From positions 1 to 61,962 of IMG/VR virus record IMGVR_UViG_3300016654_000115: DNA of 61,962 nt; one strand, written 5' to 3'. The notes under the pieces are model-generated. The model ran no database searches. It was not told the origin of the DNA and saw nothing but the letters and a program-made list of their open reading frames with translations. The position numbers and the translations under genes are program-made. Shown in pieces: positions 26,201 through 45,776 of this stretch (its first letter is position 1; every line of letters begins with the position of its first letter). This DNA is from a virus (lineage: Duplodnaviria; Caudoviricetes).

Positions 26201-26608
26201 GCTGTTATGGATTTAAACAGCGATAGCCCGAGAGCAACAAAAAGGTTTGAGCAGTTGCCTGTGATTAAACGCTTTGCTGTTGACCCGGAGGCAAGGGGAA
26301 ATGTCACCGCCTACTACGACCTGAAGAACTCTGTTGACACGGCGGTCAGAACATCAAATCTTCTTGAGAGAACTCAGAACCTAGATAACTACGGGCCATA
26401 CCGGGAATCTGTCATGGGAATGCTGGCTACCCGAGATTATGTTTTGAACCTTGAGAAGACCATGAAAGAGTTGCGGGAGATAAAGATTCTTATCCGGTCC
26501 TCCGACATGTCGGGAGATGATAAGAGAGATGCCTTGCTTGAGATCAACAGGAGGGAGGACCAGTTGGTCGAGAACATCAGGGAGATCAGGAACTTCGCAC
26601 GCCCATGA
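17279..26608 (+). CDS. Giant polyvalent (probably injected) protein: zincin peptidase, HDxxGH domain, two ART-like domains, HhH-glycosylase-like domain, LPD38
   Basis: HESLH (aa 896), FRAVHDAFGH/GEENAW, YHGT...PVY...NP...GFD...NQLKS, VTVDMW, NFNRKG...IPFLNA...IPIPFEVG. Confidence 0.75.
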   Translation: MAKFRVEMVDGRAYEVEAPEGTPQETLFAAIQERYPLAFKSTEELESAKSAPFRAADIAKSAKMGLAGGVQSLTDIFGAGNVASQYLQEAQQEAFKGLSPERIAEIERREELKKRAEGKGLGREIGASVGAFTEAPAQTLAQALFSSAPIIASAAIPGGQAAGAARLLAAARGPTAVGAAMGLGGQKGQDYETVKRELLSQGIPEEEAEQRAQKAAEYSAQNILRQAGAAAAGAVEGRFGVEPAVGRLLSRRTIEGGKTPPTWSQAIGQSVLGEAAPEALQAAVGTIGTNQALDQAGIPTELSRGLAGTVAHDALVGAVLGLGLSPAQKANLSRDYEADRAAERKKFEDEERAKIEEIARKQQEEYERKGYQEVRKAFAPQDLTKNPLGTFKAQDLSPAVVEYLDNFRAQSGLPKLKEYSIEDIADAMPGREPAKEKEALAQFVGERAGYTPDSQVTVQTVLDEALRKNIDIDARSFTDFLGRATGVNDIREMMPQQLFAAYKSLSALPESPTIREIEGGTNATRFDQAQYESALNGIDALLAELGRPASLPAVNEEIKRTTGLKSGKAIQSLLDEAIRRGDLDEVQTPRYRTIVPETGEIVGAIYDTREEAEKAAPKGAEVQEVTQRAISSPSATARLPEGYDIREGLLQTGEAPQAYDVMAGDQILNRVKSEEEAQTKLESYAKTRAAETENARKVIDKQNARLTKSQENLNLMQVEGRGRTNVYQQAIAKHQKLTDEVNQIIAKQNERIRKFDPDTTPLSIAPVGAKAVGKTGFTVLKDGAPVATFPTREKAESSILEGLPTSRLEELTREKVRRGIGPKAQKELERRAGKEKPEQVTKLEADLRKVLNKFGLKDVSLEVAEAIDGGKAGGSYLNSLIKVALDEANPVRTLRHESLHALRDLGFFTDQQWKALTNQAKSKWIDTYLKQKNIDGQPLRAGETSRYEAYVSAYMGDMDSIIEEAVADAFADFDANKAPPGMIAAILKKLNDFFTALRNALNGAGYQTAEDVFGKIERAELTPSAKAQGRMQERLARRGERYATTEPKQPSVRPSLRGGEGKQEEGAGGRDRGRRFTGRGLAPLAGAPIIQGATGPDPRLVAVAQQYAEKIGIPFRRQAEYVEVDESRARRIAQAYEDMPHAPQDPEVKEAYADLIQQTKDQYDALVDAGYEFTFFDSNTDPYDGNPFNAMRDLRNNKRMAVYGTYDGYGTDGITGAAVEDNPMLADTGLRWPDQNGVEHMVTANDLFRAVHDAFGHGLEGAGFRARGEENAWQAHAKLFTGPAVGAITSETRGQNSWLNYGPYGEKNRTAKLQDTVFAEQKTGLMPEWTWTEGMVAEEPTGIVLGQKQTGASSFNGTHYGTSRVDSLSGAKYGTGIRGAERRRLEATDDERIKRRVYFYIPKPDGTMPIPEAGLGQYVYTQSFDNILGPGAEMSRLFSEARGDANTFESLVVDAGYDGYAAPNMGMMVVLNNDVPVDYKGTAAQQREKLSLRSDIFAKRLNSIGVKSTDDFWKLWQNIMIGTAGPRPGLSGVLDERPRQEQIKDAVAVWKKDVEQYGMRRYLYGYLNTADDEIVKAKVAREILELAQIKPTVQNAIWAYNSLPGHVISANDAAVIRSLPDDFDQKAIFKDKEFPRKPKTGTDWLTGKELIEPEAENEPKFSLRIMRGEITPKFDGKVTVDKIGKYFDDQIFAEFGRKLDYNNPQDFDRAIRVANEEVAYQLTQEKSGLDWYEEDIKKAFKDTIKIIPELKKEQNRILFSIMAGIMSPQTNARDNWFIAAKAFQHYLNTGVIPGVNPETGGLWQGGTTSVNKKVQLEFLNRLVAQVGQRKAVDWAMDDHTVAEINDYRSEYGKLKTGIDGKLGDIKPGLYAFGPKVGPFVSNINGIHDVTVDMWMTRTFNRYFGTMIGPDGKIIDAPTEPQRRAIKEFVNKVAQDANIKPYQAQSVLWFYEQSLYRKLGSPAPSHGFSDGAAKFVSESGGGGGKEGVPVAAKKAQRKRLSLRAPQTPEFKRWFGRSKVVDEGGEPKIMYHGTAGDFEAFRPGKADAIFVSPNAKFVESFGGYGEDELIEQIAKQFDQQPERKRSLLIPLIDDAIADKRLATDKNSNGLYGTTREELIDRFMDSDLSNLMGSVGIGSQLRDALENELPSRANIIPVYVKSDNPFDYENTKHVNQVARLVQNNVGVGTMFLADGSRLKTKDLSQLLKEGSWRAIESEDVQDAIRSLGFDAFHIKEGTIKNLAVYNPNQLKSVFNQRPTERPEMRFNLRANIDPSLMAMVDRVTPERIEKTWVQSITEAIAPKSYSHFRQQALNRYNRLGEAEVFRSQKMGGPIRMAEDNAESAALMSDNAAGVAASALGVHDRAGGAPVYRNGVTSVWNDNGNIKGPVAIFAPLAKYNNPDIYRLYQFWAGSTRARRLLDQGKERLYTAAEITRAKELLQQFPEFEQIQKEWIKYNNALVDYGVATGVLTPEKAAEFKKYSDYIPFYRQLDGERTAGPKIFQSISGVKPPKKIKGGEQPLDDLIETVVRNTQSMIEAGMKNVAAQKAVNLAADIGLATRLPSKQTREDVVTVLERGVEVSYEVADRLFIDAVKSLNLPDLPFIGLLSGPANLLRNLVTKDPGFMLANMMRDSMAAWVTSGVKMVPVTSTVINFGKAIAGRDPVFLALLNAGIIGGYEFSQNVKAGAAEMEKAMNKVAGVRPKGAAAALKPFTSLWDALERGTTASDAATRMEVYKQTMAETGNEAEALFRALEVMNFNRKGSSPVIRILTAAIPFLNARMQGLDVLYRASFGRMVNKDAATIQKAFFVRGMTIAALSCMYWALTHDDDEYKKQEEETKDNNWLIPSLGIKIPIPFEVGVLFKVVPERIMAYAFGTDTGKDFLDSMSRQLVSTLVINPIPQAALPVVEAVTNYSFFTQREIIGQGLKDVEPKFQVGPSTSLVSQTIGESLGISPMKLDHIIKGYTGTMGMYMIDMLDAVMDLNSDSPRATKRFEQLPVIKRFAVDPEARGNVTAYYDLKNSVDTAVRTSNLLERTQNLDNYGPYRESVMGMLATRDYVLNLEKTMKELREIKILIRSSDMSGDDKRDALLEINRREDQLVENIREIRNFARP
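20403..20579 (+). CDS. Possible nested 58-aa ORF in the +1 frame of the giant gene
   Basis: AGGAG 6 nt before the ATG; spans a low-complexity linker of the host frame. Confidence 0.35.
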   Translation: MQPLNLNNLPFDPALEAAKESKKREQEVETEEDGLRAEALRRLQVRRLFREQPGQTRD

Positions 26609-26879
26609 TGCCGTTATCAAAGAGCCACCCTATTGTGGCCCGGTGGGCATCCTCCCAAATCTGTTTTCTTTCCTCTTTGTTCCACGTGGAACCTTGATCA
26701 AGCTCGAAGTGGCAGGAGTGGCAGAGGGCGGCTATCCTGTAATCGTGGGCCTTGATTGATCTGCCCTTCCCATCCCTCAACTGATTAGAGTGGGCCGCCA
26801 CCACCGTGCCATCTGATATTCCACAGTTCTGACAGGGGGCCTCTCTCACCGCCCTTAGAAGTTTTTCGTCTCTGTACAA
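26586..26879 (-). CDS. DUF1364-like Zn/HNH-type nuclease
   Basis: PCQNCG...AAHSN..GKG..K.HD...LCHSCH..LD; TTG start uncertain. Confidence 0.7.
   Translation of the reverse strand: MYRDEKLLRAVREAPCQNCGISDGTVVAAHSNQLRDGKGRSIKAHDYRIAALCHSCHFELDQGSTWNKEERKQIWEDAHRATIGWLFDNGIMGVRSS
26678..26693. promoter_or_regulatory. parS-like palindrome TGTTCCACGTGGAACC
   Basis: 15/16 match to TGTTCCACGTGGAACA; lies inside a CDS. Confidence 0.45.
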
Positions 26880-27006
26880 GGCCAAGAACCCTCTCCTCAG
26901 TAAAGAAGCGGTGCCCATTTTCGCATTCCCGCTTCCTTTTTATTGGCTCACCCTTCCACGTGTAAATGACAGAGTGGGTGGAGGAGTTGCAAACTGGGCA
27001 TTTCAT
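26785..27006 (-). CDS. Zn-ribbon protein (NrdR N-terminal-like)
   Basis: MKCPVC...RKRECENGHRF.T.E. Confidence 0.65.
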   Translation of the reverse strand: MKCPVCNSSTHSVIYTWKGEPIKRKRECENGHRFFTEERVLGLVQRRKTSKGGERGPLSELWNIRWHGGGGPL

Positions 27007-29279: not shown

Positions 29280-29732
29280 TCAGTCCCACAACGCTTGGTA
29301 ATATTTGCCAAAAAGTCGCAGACCGTTTTTGATTCGCGCGTGATGGGCGTCTAAACCTTCACGATCAACCGTGATTTGAGCAAGCTGATCCATAGCAGGG
29401 GCTAATTTATCCACACCGGAGTCGTCAAAAAACTTGCTGTCGCCTTCGATCAACGCGTCAAAGGTCCAGATCATTTCATCGAGAATGTAGTCCCAGCGTT
29501 TAAAGTGATTGGAATCTACGTCGCCGTCCTCTGCATCTTTGGCGTCTTGCAGTTCTTTTGGTACGTCGTCGTCATCGGTTGCTGGCGCACCGTGTTTCGT
29601 GGCTTTCAGTTGCTTCAACATCGGCGCAATAATTAGGGCTAACGTGGTGTCCATGTTCCACGTGTCCCACTTGTCTATATTGATGCTGACCTCGCGCTCA
29701 TCATCGGTGTATTCACCAATATGCACCTTCAT
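29280..29732 (-). CDS. Conserved phage hypothetical protein
   Basis: IDKWDTW.MD.TLA.II.PMLKQLK..KHG.P...LFGKYY..LWD. Confidence 0.75.
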   Translation of the reverse strand: MKVHIGEYTDDEREVSINIDKWDTWNMDTTLALIIAPMLKQLKATKHGAPATDDDDVPKELQDAKDAEDGDVDSNHFKRWDYILDEMIWTFDALIEGDSKFFDDSGVDKLAPAMDQLAQITVDREGLDAHHARIKNGLRLFGKYYQALWD

Positions 29733-33765: not shown

Positions 33766-34266
33766 ATGGATGTCTTGACCCCCGCCGGGATAAAAACCCT
33801 TGAGGATGAAGAGAGGGCAAAACAGATATTTGAATGTCACTATCCATCATTCAAATATATACATACACCAAAGGATCAGCCATCTGATATTGATGCAATA
33901 CTAATTGATCAAAACAGGGTGCGCGGCGTTATTGAAACCAAATGTCGCTATGACGTCACCCTTGAAGAATTCAATACAAAGTACAAGGCCTCATGGTTGA
34001 TTACCTTTGACAAGGTTTTAAAGGCCAAGGCTCTAGCAGATGGTCTCAGGGTTCCTTTGTACGGATTTTTGTATTTAAAACAATCAGATGTTTTAATGGT
34101 TACGAAAATATATTCTGACGGGGCATTTCTCAGGAAAATATTCATTGACAACACCCTTACCCAAAAAACCGTAAACGGGGGGCAGATTGTTAGAACCAAC
34201 GCATACATTGACATGGCGGGCGTCAATGTATACAAATTTCAAGATAAAAACAGAGGATTCCAATGA
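33766..34266 (+). CDS. PD-(D/E)XK-family endonuclease-like protein
   Basis: S.ID.......IETKCR motif. Confidence 0.6.
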   Translation: MDVLTPAGIKTLEDEERAKQIFECHYPSFKYIHTPKDQPSDIDAILIDQNRVRGVIETKCRYDVTLEEFNTKYKASWLITFDKVLKAKALADGLRVPLYGFLYLKQSDVLMVTKIYSDGAFLRKIFIDNTLTQKTVNGGQIVRTNAYIDMAGVNVYKFQDKNRGFQ

Positions 34267-34511
34267 GGGATTACAAATCTGAATACAAAAACTATGATGG
34301 CACAGATGCCGTCAAGAAGAAGAGGGCCCAGAGAAACAAGGCCCGCCGGATGATGGAGAGGGAGGGTGCCGTACACAAGGGGGATGGGAAGGATGTTGAC
34401 CACAAGACCCCCCTCAGCAAGGGCGGTACAACCGCCCGATCCAATCTCAGGGTCAAGAACTCCTCATCCAACAGGAGTTACCCGAGAACATCCTCCGGTT
34501 CAATCAAATGA
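34263..34511 (+). CDS. Small HNH endonuclease
   Basis: GKDVDH..PLSKGG.....NLRV.....NRS. Confidence 0.8.
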   Translation: MRDYKSEYKNYDGTDAVKKKRAQRNKARRMMEREGAVHKGDGKDVDHKTPLSKGGTTARSNLRVKNSSSNRSYPRTSSGSIK

Positions 34512-36190
34512 TTGCATTTGATGATTTCCCGGGCGATTTTGCCCGGGTTGTCTGTCCATTCTGTGCGGGGGACAGAAAGAAATCAAGGCTAAAGGAAATG
34601 GCCCTGAGCCGCCGCCCCGACGGGGCTATCCTCTATTTTTGTCATCACTGCGAGGCAAGCGGGTCGGTCCAGCCACGCAAGCAGGAGTTTAAATTGTCGG
34701 CAGTTCCATCACTCACTATTGTTTCAAAGCAATTGACAGATCGCCACTATGCCTATCTTTCAAAGAGAGGAATATCCAAAGAAACGGCAGATAAAGCAAA
34801 GTTATTTGCGGCAGAGAAATATTTCAATCGGTTGGGAAAACAGGCAGATGCAATAGGCTTTCCATATTACAGGAAGGGGGCTCTGGTTTCGGCGAAATAC
34901 AGGTCATTCCCAGATAAAGATTTCACACAGGATTCTGGGGGAGCCCATGATTTTTTCAACATCGACAACATTGACCCGACACAGCCCCTGATTATTGTTG
35001 AGGGTGAGATTGATTGTTTAACCGTTATTGAGGCCGGGCTCACTAATGTTGTTAGTGTTCCGGGCGGGGCGCCCATCAAGGTGGCGGATGGAAAGGTTCT
35101 TCCCAGCGAAGACAAGAAGTTTGCCTTTGTCTGGAATGCAAGAGAGGTTATTGATCAGGTTCCATCTGTTATTTTGGCAACAGATCAGGATGGGCCGGGG
35201 CAGGCTCTGGCGGAGGAACTGGCAAGAAGGATTGGAAAAGAGAAATGCAGGATAGCCAAGTTCGACAGAAAAGATTTGAATGAGGTTCTGCTCGACGATG
35301 ACCCAACACAGGATAGCAAGGAAAAGATCAAGGAGATTATTGACGGGGCAACCCCCTACCCCATCTCCGGCCTGTCGGAGGCCAACACCTACCTTGATCG
35401 TTTAAATGATTTATTTGCAAAGGGAACAGGCAAGGGGTTTTCCACCGGCTATCAATCGCTCGACACCATTTACACCGTTGCGCCCGGGCAACTGACTGTC
35501 GTTACAGGTTACCCCTCATCGGGTAAGAGCAACTTCGTAGACCAGTTGATGGTCAACCTAGCGACCCGGGATCAGTGGAAGTTCGCGGTTGCGTCCTTCG
35601 AGAATCAACCCGAGATACACATCACCCGACTGATGGAGATCAAGACCCGCAAAAGATTCTTTGACGGTAGGGAGAGGATGGATCAACCGGAGATGCAGGA
35701 TGCATTTAAATGGGTAGATGACCATTTCCTTTTTATCGATTCTGCGGGCGAGGAACCAAATACCCTCGATTCAATCCTTGAGCGGGCAAGGGCGTCGGTT
35801 AAACGCATGGGAATCAGGGGTATGGTTATTGACCCCTACAACTACATCGACCTTCCAAGGGATGGGACAGAGACCGAGGCTATCAGTCACATGCTTACAC
35901 GGGTGCAGAAGTTCTGCAAGGCCAACGATGTACATGTCTGGTTTGTTGCTCACCCCGCAAAGATTCAGAGGAGCGGGACAGACCAACCGCGCCCGGACGG
36001 TATGAGCATCGCAGGATCAATGGCATGGTGGGCAAAGACGGACTGCGGCGTTACCGTGCATCGGCAGGATCAGTACGTCGAAATCGCGGTATGGAAATGC
36101 CGCTACAGGTGGGTAGGGACGCAGGGTGAAACGACCCTTCTCTACAACAAAACCTCGGGCACATACGCCGAGATTTTGGACATGTTTTAA
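34508..36190 (+). CDS. T7 gp4/Twinkle-like DNA primase-helicase
   Basis: CPFC/CHHC Zn finger, TOPRIM EGEID and DQD, Walker A GYPSSGKS, VIDPYN, VAHP. Confidence 0.92.
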   Translation: MIAFDDFPGDFARVVCPFCAGDRKKSRLKEMALSRRPDGAILYFCHHCEASGSVQPRKQEFKLSAVPSLTIVSKQLTDRHYAYLSKRGISKETADKAKLFAAEKYFNRLGKQADAIGFPYYRKGALVSAKYRSFPDKDFTQDSGGAHDFFNIDNIDPTQPLIIVEGEIDCLTVIEAGLTNVVSVPGGAPIKVADGKVLPSEDKKFAFVWNAREVIDQVPSVILATDQDGPGQALAEELARRIGKEKCRIAKFDRKDLNEVLLDDDPTQDSKEKIKEIIDGATPYPISGLSEANTYLDRLNDLFAKGTGKGFSTGYQSLDTIYTVAPGQLTVVTGYPSSGKSNFVDQLMVNLATRDQWKFAVASFENQPEIHITRLMEIKTRKRFFDGRERMDQPEMQDAFKWVDDHFLFIDSAGEEPNTLDSILERARASVKRMGIRGMVIDPYNYIDLPRDGTETEAISHMLTRVQKFCKANDVHVWFVAHPAKIQRSGTDQPRPDGMSIAGSMAWWAKTDCGVTVHRQDQYVEIAVWKCRYRWVGTQGETTLLYNKTSGTYAEILDMF

Positions 36191-36192
36191 AC

Positions 36193-36212
36193 AAGGTAAA
36201 AACTTTTACCTT
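36193..36212. promoter_or_regulatory. Perfect palindrome AAGGTAAAA-AC-TTTTACCTT
   Basis: 9-bp inverted repeat; a 16/20 copy lies at 33465-33484. Confidence 0.45.
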
Positions 36213-36244
36213 AAAGAGAAAGGGGGGCATAGCCCCCCCTTCTC
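36213..36244 (-). terminator. Intrinsic terminator between convergent units
   Basis: GGGGGGC-ATA-GCCCCCC stem; T-rich tail on the minus strand. Confidence 0.7.
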
Positions 36245-36359
36245 AATATGGCGCGTCGGGTATCTTGTCCCTCTGCCTGCGCTCGTACTCCCTTTGCTGT
36301 TTGGGTGTCCAAGGTATCGGACCACCCGGGGGCGGGAAAGGCCAGTTAAACGGCTGCAA
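36243..36359 (-). CDS. 38-aa WPFP-motif peptide (not in ORF track)
   Basis: NWPFPPPGGPIPWTPKQQREY...; TTG start uncertain. Confidence 0.45.
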   Translation of the reverse strand: MQPFNWPFPPPGGPIPWTPKQQREYERRQRDKIPDAPY

Positions 36360-36582
36360 GGTAGACCGCCCGGTAGATGGTTTGGGCAGACCCGACATGG
36401 GTACCCACCCTGCATGGTTGCATCCGCATTACCCTCCATAGCCCTGCGTTCCAAACAATGTAGCGTTCGCCCGGGGCAATGAACCGCTCATCGTTTTGCA
36501 GGTCGATCAGGTCATCAGCGGCATAGGCCACCTTCAAAAACGCAGGGTTGCGGTTGGTGATGGTCTTTATTTTGGTGAACAT
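36346..36582 (-). CDS. Hypothetical protein
   Basis: Abuts the upstream ORF in the early cluster. Confidence 0.5.
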   Translation of the reverse strand: MFTKIKTITNRNPAFLKVAYAADDLIDLQNDERFIAPGERYIVWNAGLWRVMRMQPCRVGTHVGSAQTIYRAVYLAAV

Positions 36583-36816
36583 TTAAACGACCTCAAACAT
36601 CTTGTCGTCGTCGTCAATGTCGTCAAGCACTCGACCGTCGATGGTTTGCGAAAGCATTTCCCATGCAGCATCCGCATGCTGCCGAGGCACTTGCAGGATC
36701 GGTGCGTGGAAAGATCGACCGTTGCGCCTGTGGGGAATTCCCTGCTTGTCAAGCATTCCCTCGATGTAGCGCAACTTCGGATCGTTGGTGCGTTTGCAAA
36801 AAGTTTCCCATGTCAT
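36583..36816 (-). CDS. Hypothetical protein
   Basis: RBS AGGAGA. Confidence 0.6.
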   Translation of the reverse strand: MTWETFCKRTNDPKLRYIEGMLDKQGIPHRRNGRSFHAPILQVPRQHADAAWEMLSQTIDGRVLDDIDDDDKMFEVV

Positions 36817-36849
36817 TTAAACATCTCCTTCTTAGACTACGGTCATCAA

Positions 36850-37080
36850 TTACGGGCGACCGTCAGACCCAACCCAACCCATCGCAACAGGGTCAAAGGG
36901 TTCTTCCTCATATTCGCAGTTCAGTACCTCATGTACCTGATATGCCCCCTCACCTACAGCGAACCCGTGCCGCTGCGCGTAGTCCATCGCTGCCTGCTCA
37001 GAATCGAACAGTCCATATACTTGCACCGGGGAGTGCGGGAAAAAGTGCAACACAACGAATTTGCCAGTTGTCTCGTCCAT
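36850..37080 (-). CDS. Hypothetical protein with C-terminal MGWVGSDGRP
   Basis: YG.FDS...A..YA; C-terminal motif shared with 37535-38209. Confidence 0.6.
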   Translation of the reverse strand: MDETTGKFVVLHFFPHSPVQVYGLFDSEQAAMDYAQRHGFAVGEGAYQVHEVLNCEYEEEPFDPVAMGWVGSDGRP

Positions 37081-37111
37081 GTTTAAACCTTTCATGTGAT
37101 GTCAAGGGATG

Positions 37112-37219
37112 TCAGGTGGTCCACCAGTAGACCGCCGCAACAGCGATGCCGATGCCGATGGCAATCGCAAGCAAAAAATCCATTGCCGCCTCGGCGCGGC
37201 GCAGTGCAGGGTGTTTCAT
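37112..37219 (-). CDS. 35-aa membrane peptide (not in ORF track)
   Basis: DFLLAIAIGIGIAVAAVYWW; ATGA overlap with the upstream gene. Confidence 0.55.
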   Translation of the reverse strand: MKHPALRRAEAAMDFLLAIAIGIGIAVAAVYWWTT

Positions 37220-38445: not shown

Positions 38446-38694
38446 TTAAATCTCCGTTGCTTTTGCGATAGCGGCCAGTGCCTCGGCCTCGATGGTTTTT
38501 GCCCAATGACCCTTATCCATCAGGGCAATGTTTGCAATGGTTTGCAGCGCGGCCAGCATGTCAGGCGCGGCAGCGAACAGCAGTGCCTGCTGCCTGCGCA
38601 GGGTCATCGGTCGGTGCGACCCGACGACACGGGCGACCTCGACCTCCCCTTGCGGGGAGTGCTGCCATACCGTTGTGTTTTTCGCGTACATCAT
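38446..38694 (-). CDS. Hypothetical protein (AAAPD.L.AL family)
   Basis: A.L.AAAPDMLAAL...AAIAKAT. Confidence 0.65.
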   Translation of the reverse strand: MMYAKNTTVWQHSPQGEVEVARVVGSHRPMTLRRQQALLFAAAPDMLAALQTIANIALMDKGHWAKTIEAEALAAIAKATEI

Positions 38695-40358
38695 GCTGCC
38701 ACCTTAATCTGCGAGAGTGCGGCACTGGCAAGGTCGGCAGGGTCCACCACCTTGATGGCATTTGTGTACCAGACATCGGCCTGATTCCTCTCGCCGATGC
38801 CGATGGCTATTGTCGTAATGCCCAGCGCAGCACCGGCCTTGCACTGCGCACGAACCGCTGCGCCCTTGCCATCGCCATCCGTCAGAACAAACACAACCTT
38901 GCGCTGCTCCGGGCGCGTATAGATGCGCTCATGGGCAAGGCGCAGCGCCACCGAGTCGTTAGTGTCGCCCTCGTTATCTACGCACCGCACCGCATGCTTG
39001 ATGCGAGCGGCAGGGGTTCCAAACGGGCACAACACCGACGCCACAACACCGAATGTCACCACCTCGACCTGCACCCCTGCTGCGCTCAGTGAGTCGATCA
39101 GCGCATCACATGCCTGCACTGCTGCACCGATGAGTGCAGGCTGCGTAGCGCCATTGATGTTGCGCTCGACAAACATGCTGCTGCTCACGTCCAGCACAAC
39201 CGTCACCGCAGAGTCGATACCCTCAGGCTCATCATGACGTTTAAATACCCGATCACTGCCTGCTGCAACACGCGGCAGCACCGCGCTATTGATTGACCCA
39301 GCGCGTCGGTTGACTTCATACCCGCTGCGGTCGGTGTGCTCAAACATGCGGCGCACCTCACTGCGCAGGCGAGCAGGCGCATGGACAGGCGGCGCAGGCA
39401 CTGTGACTTTGTTTGTCAAATGGTGCCCATCCTTTGCAATCACCTCGTCGCGGGTAAATGAGCCACCCGGGGAGGGTTTGCCATCCATGCGCGGCTCGAC
39501 CTCACGTGCGGGTTGATGCTCGTGCGCCACCGGACGCGCATCGGGCGCGTCAGGCGCGTTTTTCCCGTCGCCTGCACCCTCACCCTCACCCTCGCCCTGA
39601 TCGCCGCCCTCAGGCCCATCTGATGCGTCTGAGTGGGCATCCTGATTGCCTGCGTCATCGCCTGCGTCATCGCCTTCCTGCTGCTGGTCATCGGGTTGCT
39701 GGTTGTCGGGTTGCTGGTTGTCGGGTTGCTGCACCTGCTGCAATTGTTTAAATACCCAATCGGCAATTGCCAGCGTGTCGCTGCTGCTGGTGCAACCAGA
39801 CAGGCGGCGATGCGCCTCGTCAAAGATCGGGCGCAGGCCACGCGCCAGCGGCACCTTGCGGGTTGCGTGATCCCGCAGATAGATCGCCAGCGCGAACGGG
39901 TATTGCGCCGTGTCCGACCAGTCGCTCACCTCCGCTAGTGCCTCGCCCACGATTGAATCCACCAGCGCGGACAGCAGGCCAGCGGCGTTGCCAACCAGAC
40001 CATCGCGGATGCACCGGCCCTCGATCCACGCATCCTCGACTGCGTTGTGCAGTGCCTGCACGTATTGCCCATTACCGCGCACCGAAAAGGTCGTGTACTT
40101 GCGGTGCAGCAGTTCGTGCAAAACAAACCCTGCATACCGTGCCACGGTGGCGCGGCCAATCACCGCATCGTCGGCCACGTTCGCCAGCACCATGTTGCCG
40201 CAGGCATTGATGGCGGCAGTGCTGATGCCTGCCCACTGGATCGTGACACGCGGCAGGCCCAGCGCAGCGCAAAGACGATGCGCGAATGCCTCGATTCCCG
40301 GGCGCAGTTCGATACCGCGAATGTTTGCGCGGCGCAGCAGTGTTTCGATGTTGCTCAT
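38691..40358 (-). CDS. CobT-like protein: HExxH domain, acidic linker, vWA domain
   Basis: LHELLH...NAVED, MIDAS DVSSSM, T, LTDG. Confidence 0.85.
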   Translation of the reverse strand: MSNIETLLRRANIRGIELRPGIEAFAHRLCAALGLPRVTIQWAGISTAAINACGNMVLANVADDAVIGRATVARYAGFVLHELLHRKYTTFSVRGNGQYVQALHNAVEDAWIEGRCIRDGLVGNAAGLLSALVDSIVGEALAEVSDWSDTAQYPFALAIYLRDHATRKVPLARGLRPIFDEAHRRLSGCTSSSDTLAIADWVFKQLQQVQQPDNQQPDNQQPDDQQQEGDDAGDDAGNQDAHSDASDGPEGGDQGEGEGEGAGDGKNAPDAPDARPVAHEHQPAREVEPRMDGKPSPGGSFTRDEVIAKDGHHLTNKVTVPAPPVHAPARLRSEVRRMFEHTDRSGYEVNRRAGSINSAVLPRVAAGSDRVFKRHDEPEGIDSAVTVVLDVSSSMFVERNINGATQPALIGAAVQACDALIDSLSAAGVQVEVVTFGVVASVLCPFGTPAARIKHAVRCVDNEGDTNDSVALRLAHERIYTRPEQRKVVFVLTDGDGKGAAVRAQCKAGAALGITTIAIGIGERNQADVWYTNAIKVVDPADLASAALSQIKVAA

Positions 40359-40360
40359 GT

Positions 40361-41818
40361 TTAAACCCCTTTGATGTTGGATTCGATCAGGCCCGGGTTG
40401 ATATTGGCAGCGTAGACTGCCTCCAGTGCGACCAGACCCTCGGCAGGTTGTTTGCTGGCAATGGTGGTTGCCCACGCATCCGCGACCGTGTGCCATGAGC
40501 AGGCGCGGATGAATGCCATCGCCTGCCGCAGGGAGGGTGCATCAACCAGCGCACCCGTTGCCAGTTGCTGGCGGCAGACATTGATCGCGGCCACAACATG
40601 CAGCGCCAGTGCGCGGGTGCATCCAGTGTGTTTAACCAGTGCATCGGCCTCGACGTCAGCAGGCAGGAAAGCAAAGGGGATCGTCCGGGCAAACCGGTCC
40701 AGCAGCGCGGCATTCATTTGCCGCACCCCAGCGTACCGGCCAGATGCATCGCCGCTGCCCAGCGTATTGTCGGCAGCGAAAACCATCACCCCAGCGGCGC
40801 GGCGATAAACCTTGCCGTGGATCGTCACCGCTGCCCCGGGTTCCAACAAACCATTCAGCATCGCCAGTTCACCGGCATCGCAATTGGAAACCTCGTCCAG
40901 CAGAATCACGGACCCGGGCGCAGTGAACGCGCGGAGAAAAGGACCCTCGACAAATTGAGTCGCGCCATTTACTAGACCGACCGCGCCGATATATTCTTCG
41001 ACCGTCGTGTATTTATGGAAGTTGATGCGGGTAAATGCGCGGCCTGTACGGGCGGCAAATTGCATAATGGTTTGCGTTTTGCCGGTACCCTTTTCACCAC
41101 CGAGCCAGATATTCTCCCCGGTATATTGCGACTGCACTAAATGCCGCACAATATCGGACCGCCAGATAAACGTGTTATCTACCGGTGGCGCATCATTATG
41201 GTTATAAATATCCAGCATAATGTTTGCGGACAATCCGGTAGTAATTCCGAAAACATTATCGGGATGATCCTGCCCAGCAGGCGCAGCAGCAGCAACAGCC
41301 ACAACCGCATCCTGCGCACCGGCATCAATCACTGCCTGTTTAAATGGACCAAATGCCTGCTCGACTGCCTGTGCGATCAGCACAGCAGCGGCACCAGTGT
41401 CAACCCTCGCAGCATCTACCTTGCCTTGCAAAGCAGACAGTGATGCATCTATTTTGTCTAAGGCGGCACCGTGCGCCAAGGATGCAGCATGCGCCTTGTT
41501 TGCGATATGCGCAGCACTGTCCAACGATTGCCGCTGAGTGCTGACAACCCTTGTAAGGTTGTCCACCGTGGTTTGCAGGTCCTTGACGTCCTGCGTCCGA
41601 ACAGCATCAACGACAACCTGATGCGCCGTCGGCGCAGCAGCAGGCGTGGCAGCAGCGCCAGCAATACGCTGCACGGTGGTGGTGCCGTTGTCAACCAGCA
41701 CCGCTAGTCGGCGGCACATGTCCAACTTATCGCCAGACATGACACTGTGCGCCTGCGCTGCGGTTTTGATCCGCGCCAGCGGCAGGCCCATGAGGGTTTT
41801 TTCGATTTGAGTGAGCAT
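40361..41818 (-). CDS. MoxR/CobS-like AAA+ ATPase
   Basis: GEKGTGKT, ILLDE, AADNT.G.G....Y.G....NAALLDRF, SLR. Confidence 0.88.
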   Translation of the reverse strand: MLTQIEKTLMGLPLARIKTAAQAHSVMSGDKLDMCRRLAVLVDNGTTTVQRIAGAAATPAAAPTAHQVVVDAVRTQDVKDLQTTVDNLTRVVSTQRQSLDSAAHIANKAHAASLAHGAALDKIDASLSALQGKVDAARVDTGAAAVLIAQAVEQAFGPFKQAVIDAGAQDAVVAVAAAAPAGQDHPDNVFGITTGLSANIMLDIYNHNDAPPVDNTFIWRSDIVRHLVQSQYTGENIWLGGEKGTGKTQTIMQFAARTGRAFTRINFHKYTTVEEYIGAVGLVNGATQFVEGPFLRAFTAPGSVILLDEVSNCDAGELAMLNGLLEPGAAVTIHGKVYRRAAGVMVFAADNTLGSGDASGRYAGVRQMNAALLDRFARTIPFAFLPADVEADALVKHTGCTRALALHVVAAINVCRQQLATGALVDAPSLRQAMAFIRACSWHTVADAWATTIASKQPAEGLVALEAVYAANINPGLIESNIKGV

Positions 41819-41828
41819 GGTTGTCCCC

Positions 41829-42410
41829 TCAAACAAGGTTGATCGTGTCGCCACAGACACACGTCGGCATGCCTTTGCTGGCCCACAGTGCCGACAGGCG
41901 AATGGTGTACCCGCACGATGGGCACAGCCCTTTGAGCAGTCGGGTGGCCTGCGTCTTGCGGGTGGTGGCCTGCAATGCAGCATGCGGGTAATCGCCCAGC
42001 CCCGAGATAATGGCCGAATACATGCCATCGAAAGCAGGTCCGGCACTGGTCGCCTTGTAGCCCCGGGTTGCGCTGGGCACGAGGCCCATCGCGTCAGCGA
42101 TAGCAGCGAATGCCTTACCGTGATTCATTGCACCGGCGCATGTATGCGCCACCTCATGCACCAGCACTGCCATCACATCCCGGGAATTGTCGAGAGTGGG
42201 CGCGACCAAAATCTCGTTGGTCTTGTCCGCGCTGGCAGTGTCAACCCAGCACTCGCCGAGTGCCTTGGACCTCTTCCAACTCGAAGGAAACCCGCAGGCA
42301 ACCCTGATACGGGCAGAGCAGGGGGCAGGCGCGTAGGCCTGAAAGATTGGGCGCAACTCCTCGACGGCGGCGGTCAGCCACTCCTCGCGTGTTGCATAGA
42401 TGATTGACAT
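41829..42410 (-). CDS. SprT-like zinc metalloprotease
   Basis: TREEWL, LGECW, LVHEVAH, HG..F, C-terminal CPSCGY..R...P.C.CG. Confidence 0.75.
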   Translation of the reverse strand: MSIIYATREEWLTAAVEELRPIFQAYAPAPCSARIRVACGFPSSWKRSKALGECWVDTASADKTNEILVAPTLDNSRDVMAVLVHEVAHTCAGAMNHGKAFAAIADAMGLVPSATRGYKATSAGPAFDGMYSAIISGLGDYPHAALQATTRKTQATRLLKGLCPSCGYTIRLSALWASKGMPTCVCGDTINLV

Positions 42411-42477
42411 TTCAAATTCTCCGGTAGCAGTGCGGGATTGCACTCCAATGCGCCCGGTCGGGCGCATCAGGGTGGAA

Positions 42478-42789
42478 TCAAAATGGAATATCGTCGTGGT
42501 CGCAGGCGAGGTCGCAGGACGCAGGGAGGCGTGGCAGAACCTCTGGCCGCGTCTCGCATCCGTCCCAATCGTTATACAGGGCCTCGGCGGCGTGGCCTGC
42601 CTCCTCGCGGGTTGCGTAATCACTGATATAGGCAGACTCCGTGCCCACGACAGCATCAGTAAACCGGCAATGCGCCGGTCCGGTAACAACAACCACAAAC
42701 CGGCCTGCCGCGATTGCGGCGCGGGTGATTTCATCCATCGGACGGCGCTGCATCAGGCTGAGGTGGTAGGCGTCTTGCAGGTCTTTCAT
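42478..42789 (-). CDS. First early gene; hypothetical protein ending in DDIPF
   Basis: RBS GGAG within a hairpin; SSB-like tail. Confidence 0.6.
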   Translation of the reverse strand: MKDLQDAYHLSLMQRRPMDEITRAAIAAGRFVVVVTGPAHCRFTDAVVGTESAYISDYATREEAGHAAEALYNDWDGCETRPEVLPRLPASCDLACDHDDIPF

Positions 42790-42932
42790 TTGTTCGCTCC
42801 ATTTTCGGGCGGGATTGCCCGGAGCGAATTGTCAAGGTAAACGCAAGCGCTGCGCGCCCCGTTCGCACTATTAAAGTGTAATAGTTTGTATCGCCCGGAT
42901 GCATGCTGCGGAGCAGCAACGGACAAAAAGCA

Positions 42933-42948
42933 CTGTACAAACATACAT
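42933..42948. promoter_or_regulatory. Near-consensus SOS box CTGTACAAACATACAT
   Basis: 1 mismatch to CTGT-N8-ACAG. Confidence 0.45.
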
Positions 42949-43040
42949 GCCTCTAAAACGCACCAGAAACGCCGTAGAGCGATTTTCTGCCGTCAGGCTA
43001 CCTACCCCTTGACCGGGGTCAGATCGTGCCACCTGCGCGT

Positions 43041-43112
43041 TTTTTCACATTGTGGAAAAAACTATCCACAAAAATCGGTGGATAACTTTATTTGTCCACA
43101 GGCTGTGGATAA
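43041..43112. promoter_or_regulatory. Cluster of six DnaA boxes in three inverted pairs (oriC-like)
   Basis: TTTTTCACA, TGTGGAAAA, CTATCCACA, GGTGGATAA, TTGTCCACA, TGTGGATAA. Confidence 0.75.
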
Positions 43113-43113
43113 C

Positions 43114-43141
43114 TTGACAAACATCTGTTTTTACGTACAGT
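43114..43141 (+). promoter_or_regulatory. sigma70 promoter TTGACA-N16-TACAGT upstream of terS
   Basis: Perfect -35 and a TAnnnT -10. Confidence 0.6.
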
Positions 43142-43158
43142 GCTGTTAATTGATACAG
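43125..43158. promoter_or_regulatory. Two tandem LexA/SOS boxes
   Basis: CTGT-TTTTACGT-ACAG (43125-40) and CTGT-TAATTGAT-ACAG (43143-58). Confidence 0.75.
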
Positions 43159-43204
43159 CGGCGCATCCAGCGCCGCGTGAAGTGACATCTAAATCAGCAA
43201 GACC

Positions 43205-43915
43205 ATGGTGCAGCGCACAACTCACAAAGACCTCATCAGCAGCATCGAGGATGCGGACCATGCCGAGATCGAGGAGGCAACAGCAGACCTCACCGATGCC
43301 GAGAGGATGGCCCTGCGAGCGGAGCCGCCGCCTTTAAATGCGAACAGGTTGGGCCCGGATGGTTTGCCCGGCGCCAGACGGCAGCGGCCTCTGACTGCAC
43401 AACAAATGGCATTCGCAAGGGGAGTCATAGAGGGGAAATCACTCAGGCAGGCATATAGAGACGCATACCCAAACGACACCAGCGCAGACAACACAATCAG
43501 CGCAGCAGCAAACAGACTGATCAAAGACACAAGGGTCAGCCAAGTAGTACAGACGGCGTGGGAAGAGACACAAGAGCATTTGACTGAGGATCGAGCAGCA
43601 GCACAAAGGTACGTCATGAGGCAACTGATAACGCTCAGCAAAGCAGGACGCCAAGAGGGTTCACGTTTAAAGGCACTGGAACTTCTCGGCAGAGCGGCAG
43701 GCATGTTCCGGGAGTCACCAGAGCAGGCCACTCAGTCCATCACCGCAGAGTCCCTCAAGAGGCAACTTAGCGCCCACCTGCGCCTGCTGGACAACGCTAG
43801 GACCTTCCGAGCATCACGGGCGACTGTCGTGGAGCAGGTAGCCCGGGAGAGGTTAAACGGCGATGCGGGGAGGGAGCGGACCCACCCTGCCCCCACCCCC
43901 CAAGATAGCGATTGA
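43205..43915 (+). CDS. terS: Terminase small subunit
   Basis: LT.QQ..FA.......QAY..AY...A..L and RLKALELLG.; upstream of TerL. Confidence 0.75.
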   Translation: MVQRTTHKDLISSIEDADHAEIEEATADLTDAERMALRAEPPPLNANRLGPDGLPGARRQRPLTAQQMAFARGVIEGKSLRQAYRDAYPNDTSADNTISAAANRLIKDTRVSQVVQTAWEETQEHLTEDRAAAQRYVMRQLITLSKAGRQEGSRLKALELLGRAAGMFRESPEQATQSITAESLKRQLSAHLRLLDNARTFRASRATVVEQVARERLNGDAGRERTHPAPTPQDSD

Positions 43916-43980
43916 CCACCCCCCTGCGCACTACGCTGTAATCCACTCATTCAAATATCCCCTAAATCAGAACACCCCCC

Positions 43981-43996
43981 CGTTCCACGTGAAACA
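43981..43996. promoter_or_regulatory. parS-like site CGTTCCACGTGAAACA
   Basis: 15/16 match to TGTTNCACGTGAAACA; intergenic. Confidence 0.65.
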
Positions 43997-44028
43997 CAAA
44001 CACCCCCGGGGTATATATATTTTTAAAA

Positions 44029-44280
44029 ATGAGCAGGCCTATAACAAAAATGACCAGCAGGAGAAAGCTGGTACTTGATTTTGTTGTTGCTTACACAAAG
44101 ATACATAAATGCGCCCCAACCATGGATGTTATTGCAAAAGCAATTGGATTGAAGAGCAGATCGAATATTCACAGGATAGTGAAGAGGCTGGAGGCGGATG
44201 GGTTTATTGAGACAAGGCCAAAGAAATACAGGTCTATTAGGGTTGTTGACAAGTCAATAAAGATTATTTCTTCGTTATGA
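44029..44280 (+). CDS. LexA-type DNA-binding (wHTH) domain only
   Basis: T.R...VLDF......PT...IA..IGLKS.S.IH..V..L...G.I......RSI; no S24 peptidase domain. Confidence 0.8.
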   Translation: MSRPITKMTSRRKLVLDFVVAYTKIHKCAPTMDVIAKAIGLKSRSNIHRIVKRLEADGFIETRPKKYRSIRVVDKSIKIISSL

Positions 44281-45776
44281 GTTTATTGACCAAAAAAGAA
44301 ATTTCTCATTTGCTGTCAATTGTTGATTCTGTTCCAAATTTGGAGAGGCAGAAGATTCATCAATTGTTGGAGATGGACAGGGTTGAGAAATGCAGGGAAT
44401 CATTTCTGTTTTTTGTTCAGCAGATGTGGCCCGGGTTTATTGGGGGTAAACACCATGCAATTATGGCTGAGGCATTTGAGAGAGTTATCAATGGAGAGTT
44501 GAAGAGGCTGATTATCAATATGCCTCCAAGGCATACAAAATCAGAGTTTGCATCCTATTTGTTGCCATCATGGTTTTTGGGTAAGTTTCCAGACAAAAAG
44601 ATTATCCAAACAGCCCACACAGCAGAGTTGGCGGTGGGTTTTGGACGGAAGGTTAGGAATTTGGTGTCTTCGGAGGATTACCAGAAGGTTTTTGAGACAA
44701 AGCTGTCAAGTGATTCAAAGGCGGCGGGGAGATGGAACACCGACAAGGGTGGTGATTACTTCGCCATCGGTGTTGGTGGCGCTGTAACGGGTAAGGGTGC
44801 CGATCTTTTGATCATTGATGATCCCCATTCTGAGCAGGAGGCCCGTCAGAACAACCCGGCAGTGTATGACGGAGTGTATGAGTGGTACACATCAGGCCCA
44901 AGGCAGCGTCTTCAGCCCGGCGGGGCCATCATTATTGTGATGACGAGATGGGCTAAGAGGGATTTAACGGGCCAAATTCTCAAAAATAGCCAAAAAGACG
45001 GAACAAATGAGTGGGAAGTCATTGATTTCCCGGCAATTTTGCCGTCCGGCACCCCTCTGTGGCCTGCCTTTTGGAAAAGGGAGGAGCTTGAGGCCTTAAA
45101 AGCAGAGCTTCCGGTGTCTAAATGGGAGGCCCAATACCAACAGAACCCAACCTCTGAGGAGGGGGCGATCATCAAGAGGGATCAATGGATGGTTTGGGAG
45201 CATGAGGACCCCCCATCCTGCGAATACATCATCCAATCATGGGACACAGCCTTTGAAAAAAGCAACAGAAGCGATTATTCGGCCTGTACCACATGGGGAG
45301 TTTTTTATCGGCCCGACAGCAAGGGGAATTCCAAGCCAAACATCATCCTCTTGGATGCGTTTAAAGAGAGAATGGAGTTCCCAGAGCTAAAAAAGAAGGC
45401 ATTGGAACTGTGGCAAGAATGGAACCCAGACACCCTGATTGTAGAAAAGAAGGCGGCGGGAGCCCCATTGATCTATGAGATGAGAAGGATGGGAATCCCC
45501 CTTTCGGAATATACACCGGGCAAGGGAAGCGATAAGATAGCGCGTGTAAACGCAATTTCTGATTTGTTTGCCTCTGGTGTTGTTTGGTGCCCAGAAACAA
45601 GATGGGCAGATGAGGTGATGGAGGAGATGGCCTCCTTTCCCAGTGGCGACCATGATGATCTTGTGGACTCGGCAAGTCAGGCCCTGATTCGTTTTCGGCA
45701 GGGCGGCTTCATCAGCATTGATTCAGATGAGCCGGAGGAGCCCAATTTTTACCGAAGAAAGATGGAGTATTACTAA
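44277..45776 (+). CDS. terL: Terminase large subunit
   Basis: MPPRHTKS, IIDDP, MTRW, QSWDTA, IVE, HDDLVD. Confidence 0.95.
   Translation: MSLLTKKEISHLLSIVDSVPNLERQKIHQLLEMDRVEKCRESFLFFVQQMWPGFIGGKHHAIMAEAFERVINGELKRLIINMPPRHTKSEFASYLLPSWFLGKFPDKKIIQTAHTAELAVGFGRKVRNLVSSEDYQKVFETKLSSDSKAAGRWNTDKGGDYFAIGVGGAVTGKGADLLIIDDPHSEQEARQNNPAVYDGVYEWYTSGPRQRLQPGGAIIIVMTRWAKRDLTGQILKNSQKDGTNEWEVIDFPAILPSGTPLWPAFWKREELEALKAELPVSKWEAQYQQNPTSEEGAIIKRDQWMVWEHEDPPSCEYIIQSWDTAFEKSNRSDYSACTTWGVFYRPDSKGNSKPNIILLDAFKERMEFPELKKKALELWQEWNPDTLIVEKKAAGAPLIYEMRRMGIPLSEYTPGKGSDKIARVNAISDLFASGVVWCPETRWADEVMEEMASFPSGDHDDLVDSASQALIRFRQGGFISIDSDEPEEPNFYRRKMEYY

Follow-up and report, generated by a model that had tools for sequence, protein, structure and literature searches.

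How a phage that carries neither a DNA polymerase nor an integrase starts its replication and times its late genes is the question raised by the control region of IMGVR_UViG_3300016654_000115, an IMG/VR virus record of the Caudoviricetes. The window, as the whole stretch of DNA analyzed is called here, is this entire record, a single 61,962-bp contig whose two ends share a direct repeat of 22 bp. IMG/VR classes the record under direct terminal repeats and CheckV puts its completeness at 100%, in agreement with an earlier note made from the letters alone (the original prediction), which had taken the genome to be complete. The early arm runs leftward from 42789 down to 26586, and the late arm runs rightward from the gene for the small terminase subunit, terS (43205), via terL, portal, head and tail genes, and wraps past the end of the record, its last gene being that of a 3109-aa polyvalent protein that ends at 26608. 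Between the two arms lie an array of DnaA boxes, SOS (LexA) boxes and a chromosomal-type parS site. Our preferred reading, held with a confidence that falls somewhat short of even, is that this phage is a podophage with the control region as its master switch, where the packaging/late promoter is operated by DnaA and LexA of the host and replication probably starts at the DnaA array as well. As far as sequence can tell, the operator role is the one to which we commit, while the origin role is considered probable.

The DnaA box is TTWTNCACA, and six such boxes are found within the array at 43041–43112, arranged as three head-to-head pairs (43041+ and 43051−, 43062+ and 43077−, 43092+ and 43104−). 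The boxes at 43041(+), 43051(−) and 43104(−) are exact, and the remaining three have one mismatch each, namely CTATCCACA at 43062–43070 (+), TTATCCACC at 43077–43085 (−) and TTGTCCACA at 43092–43100 (+). It should be noted that exact boxes are not enriched genome-wide (6 against 5.4 expected, with at least 6 in 46 of 100 shuffles), and that the DnaA signal is one of clustering, not of genome-wide count. The array is the sole site of the window with at least three boxes, allowing one mismatch, per 80 bp, and six boxes in 80 bp were reached in none of 200 first-order Markov simulations, where the maximum was two boxes in 77 runs, three in 114, four in 8 and five in 1. The boxes of the array, of the form CTGTGGATAAC, presumably match the flanks of R1/R4 in E. 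coli oriC.

The last box of the array ends 1 bp before the −35 hexamer (TTGACA, 43114) of the rightward promoter, P_R (43114–43141, +), which was found in a sigma70 consensus scan and scores 10/12, with a 16-nt spacer and the −10 hexamer TACAGT. The Beta/Gammaproteobacterial LexA box is CTGT-N8-ACAG, and two exact copies are placed on this promoter: SOS box 1, CTGTTTTTACGTACAG, at 43125–43140, over the spacer and the −10 of P_R, and SOS box 2, CTGTTAATTGATACAG, at 43143–43158, over the expected transcription start. The core promoter (43114–43141) is thus overlapped by the SOS boxes (43125–43158), which have A+T-rich spacers and lie 2 bp apart, or 18 bp centre to centre. Genome-wide, the window contains four matches to CTGT-N8-ACAG against 0.57 expected, and none of 100 shuffles reached four.

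On the other side of the array, a 22-nt inverted repeat, I4, relates 42926–42947 to 43126–43147 with 77% complementarity, and GTACAGTGCT is found exactly on both sides, at 42929(−) and 43135(+). The left arm of the repeat (42926–42947, −) is read as a putative leftward early promoter, with the −10 hexamer TACAGT at 42937–42932, because it mirrors the −10/SOS part of P_R. A further SOS box, CTGTACAAACATACAT (42933–42948), matching the consensus in 15 of 16 positions, is located at this promoter. From its layout, the region thus resembles a pair of divergent promoters that each carry an SOS box. The original prediction had placed six DnaA boxes in the 72 bp of 43041–43112, two perfect LexA boxes over the terS promoter at 43125–43158 and a third, near-consensus LexA box at 42933, all of which were recovered, the DnaA boxes as three exact and three one-mismatch copies. 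Against shuffled or simulated controls, the DnaA cluster (0/200), the LexA boxes (0/100) and the parS sites (0/100, see below) lie beyond chance, while the exact DnaA count taken alone does not.

Between the leftward promoter and the DnaA array, a conserved spacer block (42950–43040) contains the motif GGCTACC (GGTAGCC on the other strand). Among 50 variants from related phages, this 7-mer was found in the forward orientation in 9, in reverse in 10 and in neither in 31, which hints at an invertible or palindromic element. Variation was also seen within the array, where a variant from a 2025 reservoir run lost one A from the A-run at 43070–43074, between boxes 3 and 4. The pair spacing thereby changes from 6 to 5 bp with the boxes intact, and the control region was otherwise unchanged in contigs from four runs, in which uncovered bins are uninformative.

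To place these sites in a wider context, relatives were collected from IMG/VR and the Joint Genome Institute (JGI) metagenomes, using as queries terS, terL and the protein encoded between them, which contains only the DNA-binding domain of LexA (LexA-DBD protein). terL identified relatives in 384 stretches of IMG/VR and 223 of the JGI metagenomes, of which the best 80 of each were kept, and the clade proved to be large and of freshwater origin. The 110 loci included 86 with a terS match and 65 with more than 350 bp upstream, yielding 45 distinct control-region variants; density counts were based on 51 variants, defined by the last 200 bp. Every locus that is long enough shows the same order of AAA, SprT-like protein, control region, terS, LexA-DBD, terL and portal, with identities of 80–85% for terL and 39–58% for terS. 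The sites recur at the same positions, between the divergent early and late arms as originally claimed, even though terS itself is only some 39–58% identical.

An array of at least four DnaA boxes (at most one mismatch) within 120 bp upstream of terS was found in 41 of the 45 variants, and the other four have two or three boxes. In density terms, the interval from −350 to −20 contains 18.8 boxes per kb, as compared to 1.58 per kb in the remainder of these loci. For SOS boxes the picture is mixed: 32 of the 45 variants have one when a single mismatch is allowed, 11 have an exact copy and 13 have none. Their density at up to one mismatch is 4.22 per kb, about 14 times the 0.31 per kb of the flanks, and that of exact boxes is 0.83 per kb against 0.02 per kb elsewhere. 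Tandem SOS-like boxes with the 18-bp spacing recur at −75, −57 and −39, and equivalents of the 42933 box are present in loci L017, L018, L020, L058, L059 and L108 and, as tandem pairs, in L002, L004, L005, L007 and L016. Given the simulations, the shuffles and these densities, a chance origin of the sites was ruled out. Co-conservation, then, holds for the DnaA array (41/45) and is mixed for the SOS boxes, and parS is confined to three lineages. Two side observations concern the same elements. In L004 and L005, about −313 from terS, CTGTGGATATATACAG reads as a perfect SOS box and, with one mismatch, as a DnaA box too. The terL relative L095 has a DnaA array of six boxes and comes from a metagenome contig of 138,223 bp, which may represent a concatemer, an element of larger size or an integrated copy.

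Why would such an array be kept at this place? The proximal DnaA box abuts the best sigma70-like promoter in 12 and overlaps it in 33 of the 51 variants (45/51 together), although these promoter calls are rough and, given the likeness of DnaA boxes to a −35 hexamer, in part circular, and this should be counted as a weakness of our reading. As the box is tied to the promoter position across the clade, a role as operator fits the array at least as well as one as origin. The same observation bears on two other explanations. In the first, the boxes, together with parS where it is present, would be a decoy that drains DnaA and ParB, so that host initiation and segregation stop and the replisome is freed. 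The high-affinity type of the boxes (CTGTGGATAAC) and the dependence of the phage on the host polymerase are in line with such a sink. A sink, however, would work from any position, whereas the array keeps to one promoter clade-wide, and there is only one array per genome; we thus consider a decoy very unlikely. In the second, the array would be a DNA-entry or anchoring signal that holds the incoming DNA at membrane-bound DnaA. T5-like phages keep eight DnaA boxes in non-coding, non-origin DNA, the iss region, according to a T5 study in which the entry model is itself only a hypothesis (bioRxiv 10.1101/866236). Both that array and the present one are conserved multi-box arrays in phage non-coding DNA. 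The T5 array, as described there, is located in the terminal repeat of a phage with its own polymerase, is not at a terS promoter and comes without SOS boxes or parS. Since the array of the window is coupled to a promoter, an entry signal is the explanation to which we give the least credence of all.

The arrangement has a cellular counterpart. At E. coli uvrB, boxes for DnaA and for LexA are interleaved, a LexA box being overlapped by one of those for DnaA, and both proteins repress (PMC6015884). In uvrB and in the window both kinds of boxes lie on one promoter region, and the dual box CTGTGGATATATACAG of L004/L005 resembles the situation at uvrBp3. uvrB, on the other hand, is a cellular repair gene rather than a phage switch, and with six boxes in 72 bp the array of the window is denser than what that source describes. 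By this likeness, our preferred reading would work as follows. Two mirror-image sigma70-type promoters would fire apart, the leftward one driving the early arm and P_R driving terS, the LexA-DBD gene, terL and the structural genes. Host DnaA on the array and host LexA on the tandem boxes would keep the packaging/late operon off, as at uvrB, and the 15/16 SOS box would do likewise at the leftward promoter. Firing of P_R would then need cleavage of LexA in the SOS response together with the loss or titration of DnaA, and replication by the host replisome would begin at the DnaA array, between the two promoters.

A related explanation uses the same components as a purely lytic timer for the late genes. 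A lone genome would be saturated by DnaA and LexA with P_R off, and amplification would titrate DnaA while single-stranded DNA triggers LexA cleavage, turning the late genes on. The position of the array at P_R in 45 of the 51 variants is as expected for a timer. No late activator was recognized in our scans other than the winged helix-turn-helix (wHTH) LexA-DBD protein of the late operon itself, the first early genes look lytic and lysogens were not found. Replication-coupled late transcription also has a precedent in phages Mu and T4 (PMC12867686). Nonetheless, in the window and in several lineages SOS boxes are also present at the leftward early promoter, where they would block the early genes in undamaged cells, and we regard such a timer as rather unlikely.

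For the role of the array in replication, the gene content should be considered. Protein scans with Pfam, PHROGs and NCBIfam covered the early arm and all but about 25 small open reading frames (ORFs) of the late arm, and six-frame hidden Markov model (HMM) searches covered the entire genome at a cut-off of E≤1, with positive controls that worked in each search. The six-frame searches gave no match for DNA_pol_A, DNA_pol_B, Phage_integrase, Resolvase, ParB_N, CbiA (ParA) or Peptidase_S24, and the Pfam and PHROGs scans of the window proteins revealed no Rep family. The sole recognizable replication enzyme is a T7 gp4/Twinkle-type primase-helicase (34508–36190, +) with Toprim and DnaB_C domains (phrog_239, 6.9e-90), which is 66–73% identical in relatives and is carried by a plus-strand island (33766–37130) within the early arm. 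The phage also has recombination genes, for a Sak annealing protein and a PD-(D/E)XK exonuclease, and further matches were to MoxR-type AAA, VWA and SprT-like proteins, NinX and a DUF968-like HNH protein. The 65 early-arm ORFs of three relatives belong to the same families and include no Rep, integrase, polymerase or ParAB; integrase was found in none of 5 and none of 8 relatives, and ParB_N in none of 8. Among the early-arm families of the window and the three relatives there was no candidate for a conserved replication initiator. The hidden integrase or Rep that might have spoken against the original prediction was thus not revealed by these searches, and its list of missing genes stands as regards integrase, ParA/ParB, polymerase and S24 repressor; it should be amended in that a gp4-type primase-helicase and a LexA-like regulator are present.

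As the phage has only a gp4-type primase-helicase and recombination genes, with no conserved initiator, the array would be the most likely start of replication. A consensus DnaA-box cluster in the absence of a phage polymerase is what the window shares with origins of the oriC and P1 oriR type. P1 oriR is a DnaA-dependent origin with a Rep protein, and no such protein appeared in our scans of the window. The origin role is further favored by relatives with PolA, in which the array is missing. No exact TTATCCACA occurs anywhere in the PolA phages DSL-LC04 and HTVC023P, and seven PolA-type IMG/VR genomes have one to six exact boxes each, about as many as in a reversed-pattern control, with no array; the PolA-type sister group comprises at least 597 relatives, with terL 38–57% identical. 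Pag-Yong1 has neither PolA nor DnaA boxes. The PolA loci with 8-kb flanks contained no terS or terL. One contig initially seemed to offer a natural test of origin versus operator, namely G010 (L154, L200), a 52-kb IMG/VR contig with a window-type late module (terL 84% identical) and a PolA-type early module. It was dropped, as it ends inside the LexA-DBD gene and may be chimeric, the join in that gene being either a real recombinant or an assembly chimera.

The third type of site is parS, for which the chromosomal consensus is TGTTNCACGTGAAACA. The site after terS, CGTTCCACGTGAAACA (43981–43996), matches in 15 of 16 positions, as the original prediction had proposed for this place, while a second one had been overlooked. 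This is the palindrome TGTTCCACGTGGAACC (26678–26693), which is parS-like with 15/16 to the symmetric form and lies inside a HNH/DUF968-like ORF (26586–26918, −). With up to two mismatches there are four matches in the window (two sites on both strands), against 0.10 expected, and none in 100 shuffles reached this number. The half-site TTCCACGTG, present at 26954–26962 and again at 29656–29664, gives five matches at four sites against 0.41 expected (0/100 shuffles). At 26678, the window encodes DQGSTWNK where two relatives have DQG(N/S)KMSK, and in view of these amino-acid changes the palindrome does not simply follow from a conserved peptide. Clade DNA totalling 351,029 bases contained ten parS matches with at most one mismatch, nine at the same spot after terS and the tenth being 26678; of 30 shuffles of this DNA, 29 gave no match and one gave a single match. 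Three lineages carry the post-terS site, namely the window, L003/L012 (with L005 at two mismatches) and L021–L028. The site is also present in L042–L049 and is perfect (16/16) in L012 and G011. The parS copies are a lineage-specific addition, which would probably load host ParB. The likeness to the chromosomal parS/ParB system lies in the match of 15/16 in the window and 16/16 in two relatives at the post-terS position; the difference is that the element has no cognate parA/parB and that the site is found in a minority of lineages.

The preferred reading, that host DnaA and LexA are operators on the late promoter and the array a probable origin, has some weaknesses that need to be considered. 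The same DNA is found only in freshwater and reservoir metagenome runs from three studies, with no RNA run listed among them, and in no isolate genome, and CTGT-N8-ACAG may not be the LexA consensus of its host. The leftward promoter has a poor −35, and the SOS box is exact in only 11 of the 45 variants and missing in 13 even when one mismatch is allowed. parS is found in only 1 of 5 and 1 of 8 larger relatives, and in none of the 4 relatives that are at least 90% complete, which counts against a mini-chromosome. In the window, no unstable stretch resembling a DNA unwinding element (DUE) adjoins the array, as it would at an oriC-type origin, and the flanks are no less stable than average. The 60-mers of lowest stability lie in other parts of the window, including 33819–34284 beside the primase-helicase gene, and in some relatives the left flank of the array is A+T-rich. 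The cumulative GC skew has its minimum near 42–44 kb, but the skew follows the direction of transcription, as the plus island at 33.7–37.1 kb has positive skew inside the minus arm; GC skew was accordingly given up as a pointer to an origin. The window showed neither iterons nor tandem repeats that would suggest an origin at another place. The contrast between PolA-type and array-type phages may reflect a single evolutionary event. Regarding lifestyle, a terL scan of 185,579 species genomes (one per species) found no lysogen and gave a single 1.5-kb contig of a metagenome-assembled genome (MAG), and the best terL identity among PLSDB plasmids is 36%, in collections where the host may simply not be represented. 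As in lytic phages, the leftward arm opens with ORFs that are small, acidic and variable. SOS boxes on both promoters speak for a phage that is or once was temperate, and so do early genes of lambdoid type, namely NinX and DUF968 in the case of the window and RusA and YbcO in that of relatives.

These points also bear on the mini-chromosome that the original prediction had inferred, an episome initiated by host DnaA, segregated by host ParAB/SMC through parS and silenced by LexA until the SOS response. All three types of site are present in the window and are non-random, the two parS copies bracket the early arm, and the second was created by amino-acid changes in a coding region. Integrase, Rep, ParAB and repressor were not found, SOS boxes are present at both promoters, the early genes are lambdoid and temperate-like, and host LexA serves as prophage repressor for the episomal phage GIL01 (PMC6182141). 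However, most relatives lack parS, 13 of the 45 variants lack SOS boxes, no DUE was seen at the array, and the DNA is known from metagenomes only, with no close relative in the 185,579 species genomes (bar the MAG contig) nor in PLSDB. Rep and ParA/ParB of its own, by which a phage-plasmid of the P1/N15 type is recognized, were not found in the window. What stands of the inference are the sites, the complete genome and the missing maintenance genes, while parS is not clade-wide and neither a DUE nor a lysogen or plasmid form was found. That the clade gave its repressor, its initiator and, in some lineages, its partition to the host, and persists as a host-run episome through cis-sites alone that fires on damage or replication signals, is thus a possibility that we find doubtful.

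Since LexA is central to our preferred reading, the LexA-DBD protein encoded by the phage should be considered as well. Its gene (44029–44280, +; 83 aa, or 76 aa from 44050, as in the database gene call) lies directly before that of the large terminase subunit, terL (44277–45776, +), with which the late structural arm begins. The protein matches PF01726 (1.7e-11) and TIGR00498 (4.4e-12, on residues 6–78) and has no S24 domain, nor did the six-frame search find one anywhere in the genome. The gene is present in all 19 loci that have both terS and terL and was not found in three distant isolates, and a protein-database search for homologues with the wHTH gave only three proteins. In 54 distinct proteins, the recognition helix KS(K/R)SNIHRIV is nearly invariant, with occasional A, M, V and Y substitutions, and differs from the SPNAAEEH of a solved LexA.

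The closest known arrangement is the lytic switch of the Bacillus tectivirus GIL01, with host LexA, gp7 and gp6. There, tandem boxes in the late promoter are bound by host LexA, and the phage encodes a truncated LexA homologue, gp6, which activates the late promoter at a palindrome of its own (PMC6182141). GIL01 and the window have in common the lack of a dedicated phage repressor, the tandem LexA boxes in the late promoter and a LexA homologue consisting of the DNA-binding domain only. They differ in that the gene is in the late operon in the window and in the early operon in GIL01, and in that GIL01 is an established prophage in linear plasmid form with a protein-primed polymerase of its own, whereas the window has no polymerase and lysogeny was not found; neither a DnaA array nor parS is mentioned for GIL01 in that account. 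BLASTP gave no alignment between the LexA-DBD protein and gp6, and the two should thus be seen as analogous or parallel rather than orthologous. By analogy with gp6, the LexA-DBD protein would act separately as a phage regulator, on its own target.

One may then ask whether the boxes are bound by this phage protein instead of host LexA and DnaA. Its gene goes with the array throughout the clade, with no match in the three distant isolates, and gp6 of GIL01 uses a palindrome CACA-nn-TGTG at a −35 (PMC6182141), such as head-to-head DnaA boxes also form. On the other side, the recognition helix remains nearly invariant while SOS boxes come and go, it is unlike that of LexA reading CTGT, and the match of the boxes to the host consensus is exact. 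Among relatives, the proximal DnaA-box pair is spaced by anything from 2 to 13 or more bp, and parS is lineage-specific. As the protein is constant, whether SOS boxes or parS are present or absent, and the sites and their spacing vary, none of them is likely to be its operator, and binding of the boxes by the phage protein appears very improbable. For parS, the near-invariance of the helix in the 54 proteins regardless of this site ruled out a role as wHTH operator, and for the DnaA-box pairs the varying spacing did so.

Of further motifs, GAACGTTC and GTTTAAAC recur in the spacers of relatives and are absent or not enriched in the window, and ATGCGAAC and TGCGAAC are likewise not enriched there. 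terS (43205–43915, +; phrog_51, 2.6e-11) aligns with its relatives up to residue 195–204, and the residues past this point are probably a read-through of a conserved non-coding block. It is followed by a C-rich conserved block (43880–43980) with the motifs CCCACC.TGCCCC.ACCCCCC and TACGCTsTAATCCAC, then by parS, by CCCCCGGGG and TATATATATTTTT (44000–44028, +), an element that is terminator-like or easily melted and occurs clade-wide as GGGGGTATATATATTTT, and by the 83-aa ORF. The spacers between terS and LexA-DBD were compared in L005, L012, L014, L021, L024 and L027. In some relatives there are inserts, one or two per spacer, with CAACACGCATGGG.ATT... and ...CCAG.CGTGTTGG at their borders; these look structured or mobile and had no Rfam match, and L024 has a tRNA gene at 3454–3526. 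The 3' end of terS and the spacer of relatives (L009 3942–4010, L003, L012) contain repeats of G(T/G)TTAAAC and GTGTAAAC, and a CGAACGTTCG palindrome adjoins a promoter-like site, TTGCGA-N17-TAAACT, before the LexA-DBD gene of relatives. These repeats and the palindrome, which are not found in the window, are possible pac or wHTH operator sites. The window itself has no tRNA genes and no match to Rfam families.

On the early side, the conserved neighbor of the control region is the SprT-like protein (41829–42413, −; PF10263 7e-4, phrog_6361 5e-38), which likely starts near 42413 rather than at the listed ORF end of 42734, as its relatives begin at M..TREEWL. Together with a MoxR-type AAA protein (561 aa) and a VWA/CobT-like protein (601 aa) it forms a conserved trio at 38691–42413 (−). 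The first leftward ORF (42478–42789, −) encodes an acidic protein of 103 aa of no known family, with no match in Pfam, PHROGs or NCBIfam and no tblastn match in relatives, where its position is filled by differing small ORFs. Further away, the polyvalent protein (17279–26608, +) has ART-PolyVal (ADP-ribosyltransferase) and LPD38 domains; in relatives its C-terminal third is 48–60% identical and its middle is variable. An ORF at 13547–15682, in part like a DNA-ejection protein, contains a 180-bp unit three times in tandem (13980–14511, 80% matches). For two ORFs of no known family, a comparison with the Atlas gave no lead.

With respect to its virion, the phage is distantly related to known ones. 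The portal is 27–45% identical to those of HTVC023P-type pelagiphages, DSL-LC04, Pag-Yong1 and others, pointing to a distantly related structural module. The HTVC023P-type podophages and DSL-LC04 share a related virion/packaging module (portal 37–45%, terL ~50–57% identity) but have PolA and no DnaA array, where the clade of the window has a lambdoid-like early module. As for the control sites, the single pieces are known: phage lambda pR has DnaA boxes at the promoter, single DnaA boxes modulate some phage promoters and CTXphi borrows host LexA. What is new is the combination, namely a clade-wide DnaA array on the packaging/late promoter, often with SOS boxes and in some lineages with parS, in genomes without polymerase or integrase. 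We found no literature on host-type parS in phages or on this combination of sites, in a search that left most subscription journals outside its coverage, and these parS copies would, to our knowledge, give the first case of host-type centromere sites in a phage genome.

If the sites work as read here, the phage would sense both the replication potential of the host and DNA damage at the very promoter that commits it to packaging. If so, uncultured freshwater systems would lend themselves to testing how replication is started, and late genes are timed, by phages that lack a polymerase. With 384 terL relatives in IMG/VR and 223 in JGI metagenomes, this would concern a large clade that has a conserved DnaA array in its central switch.

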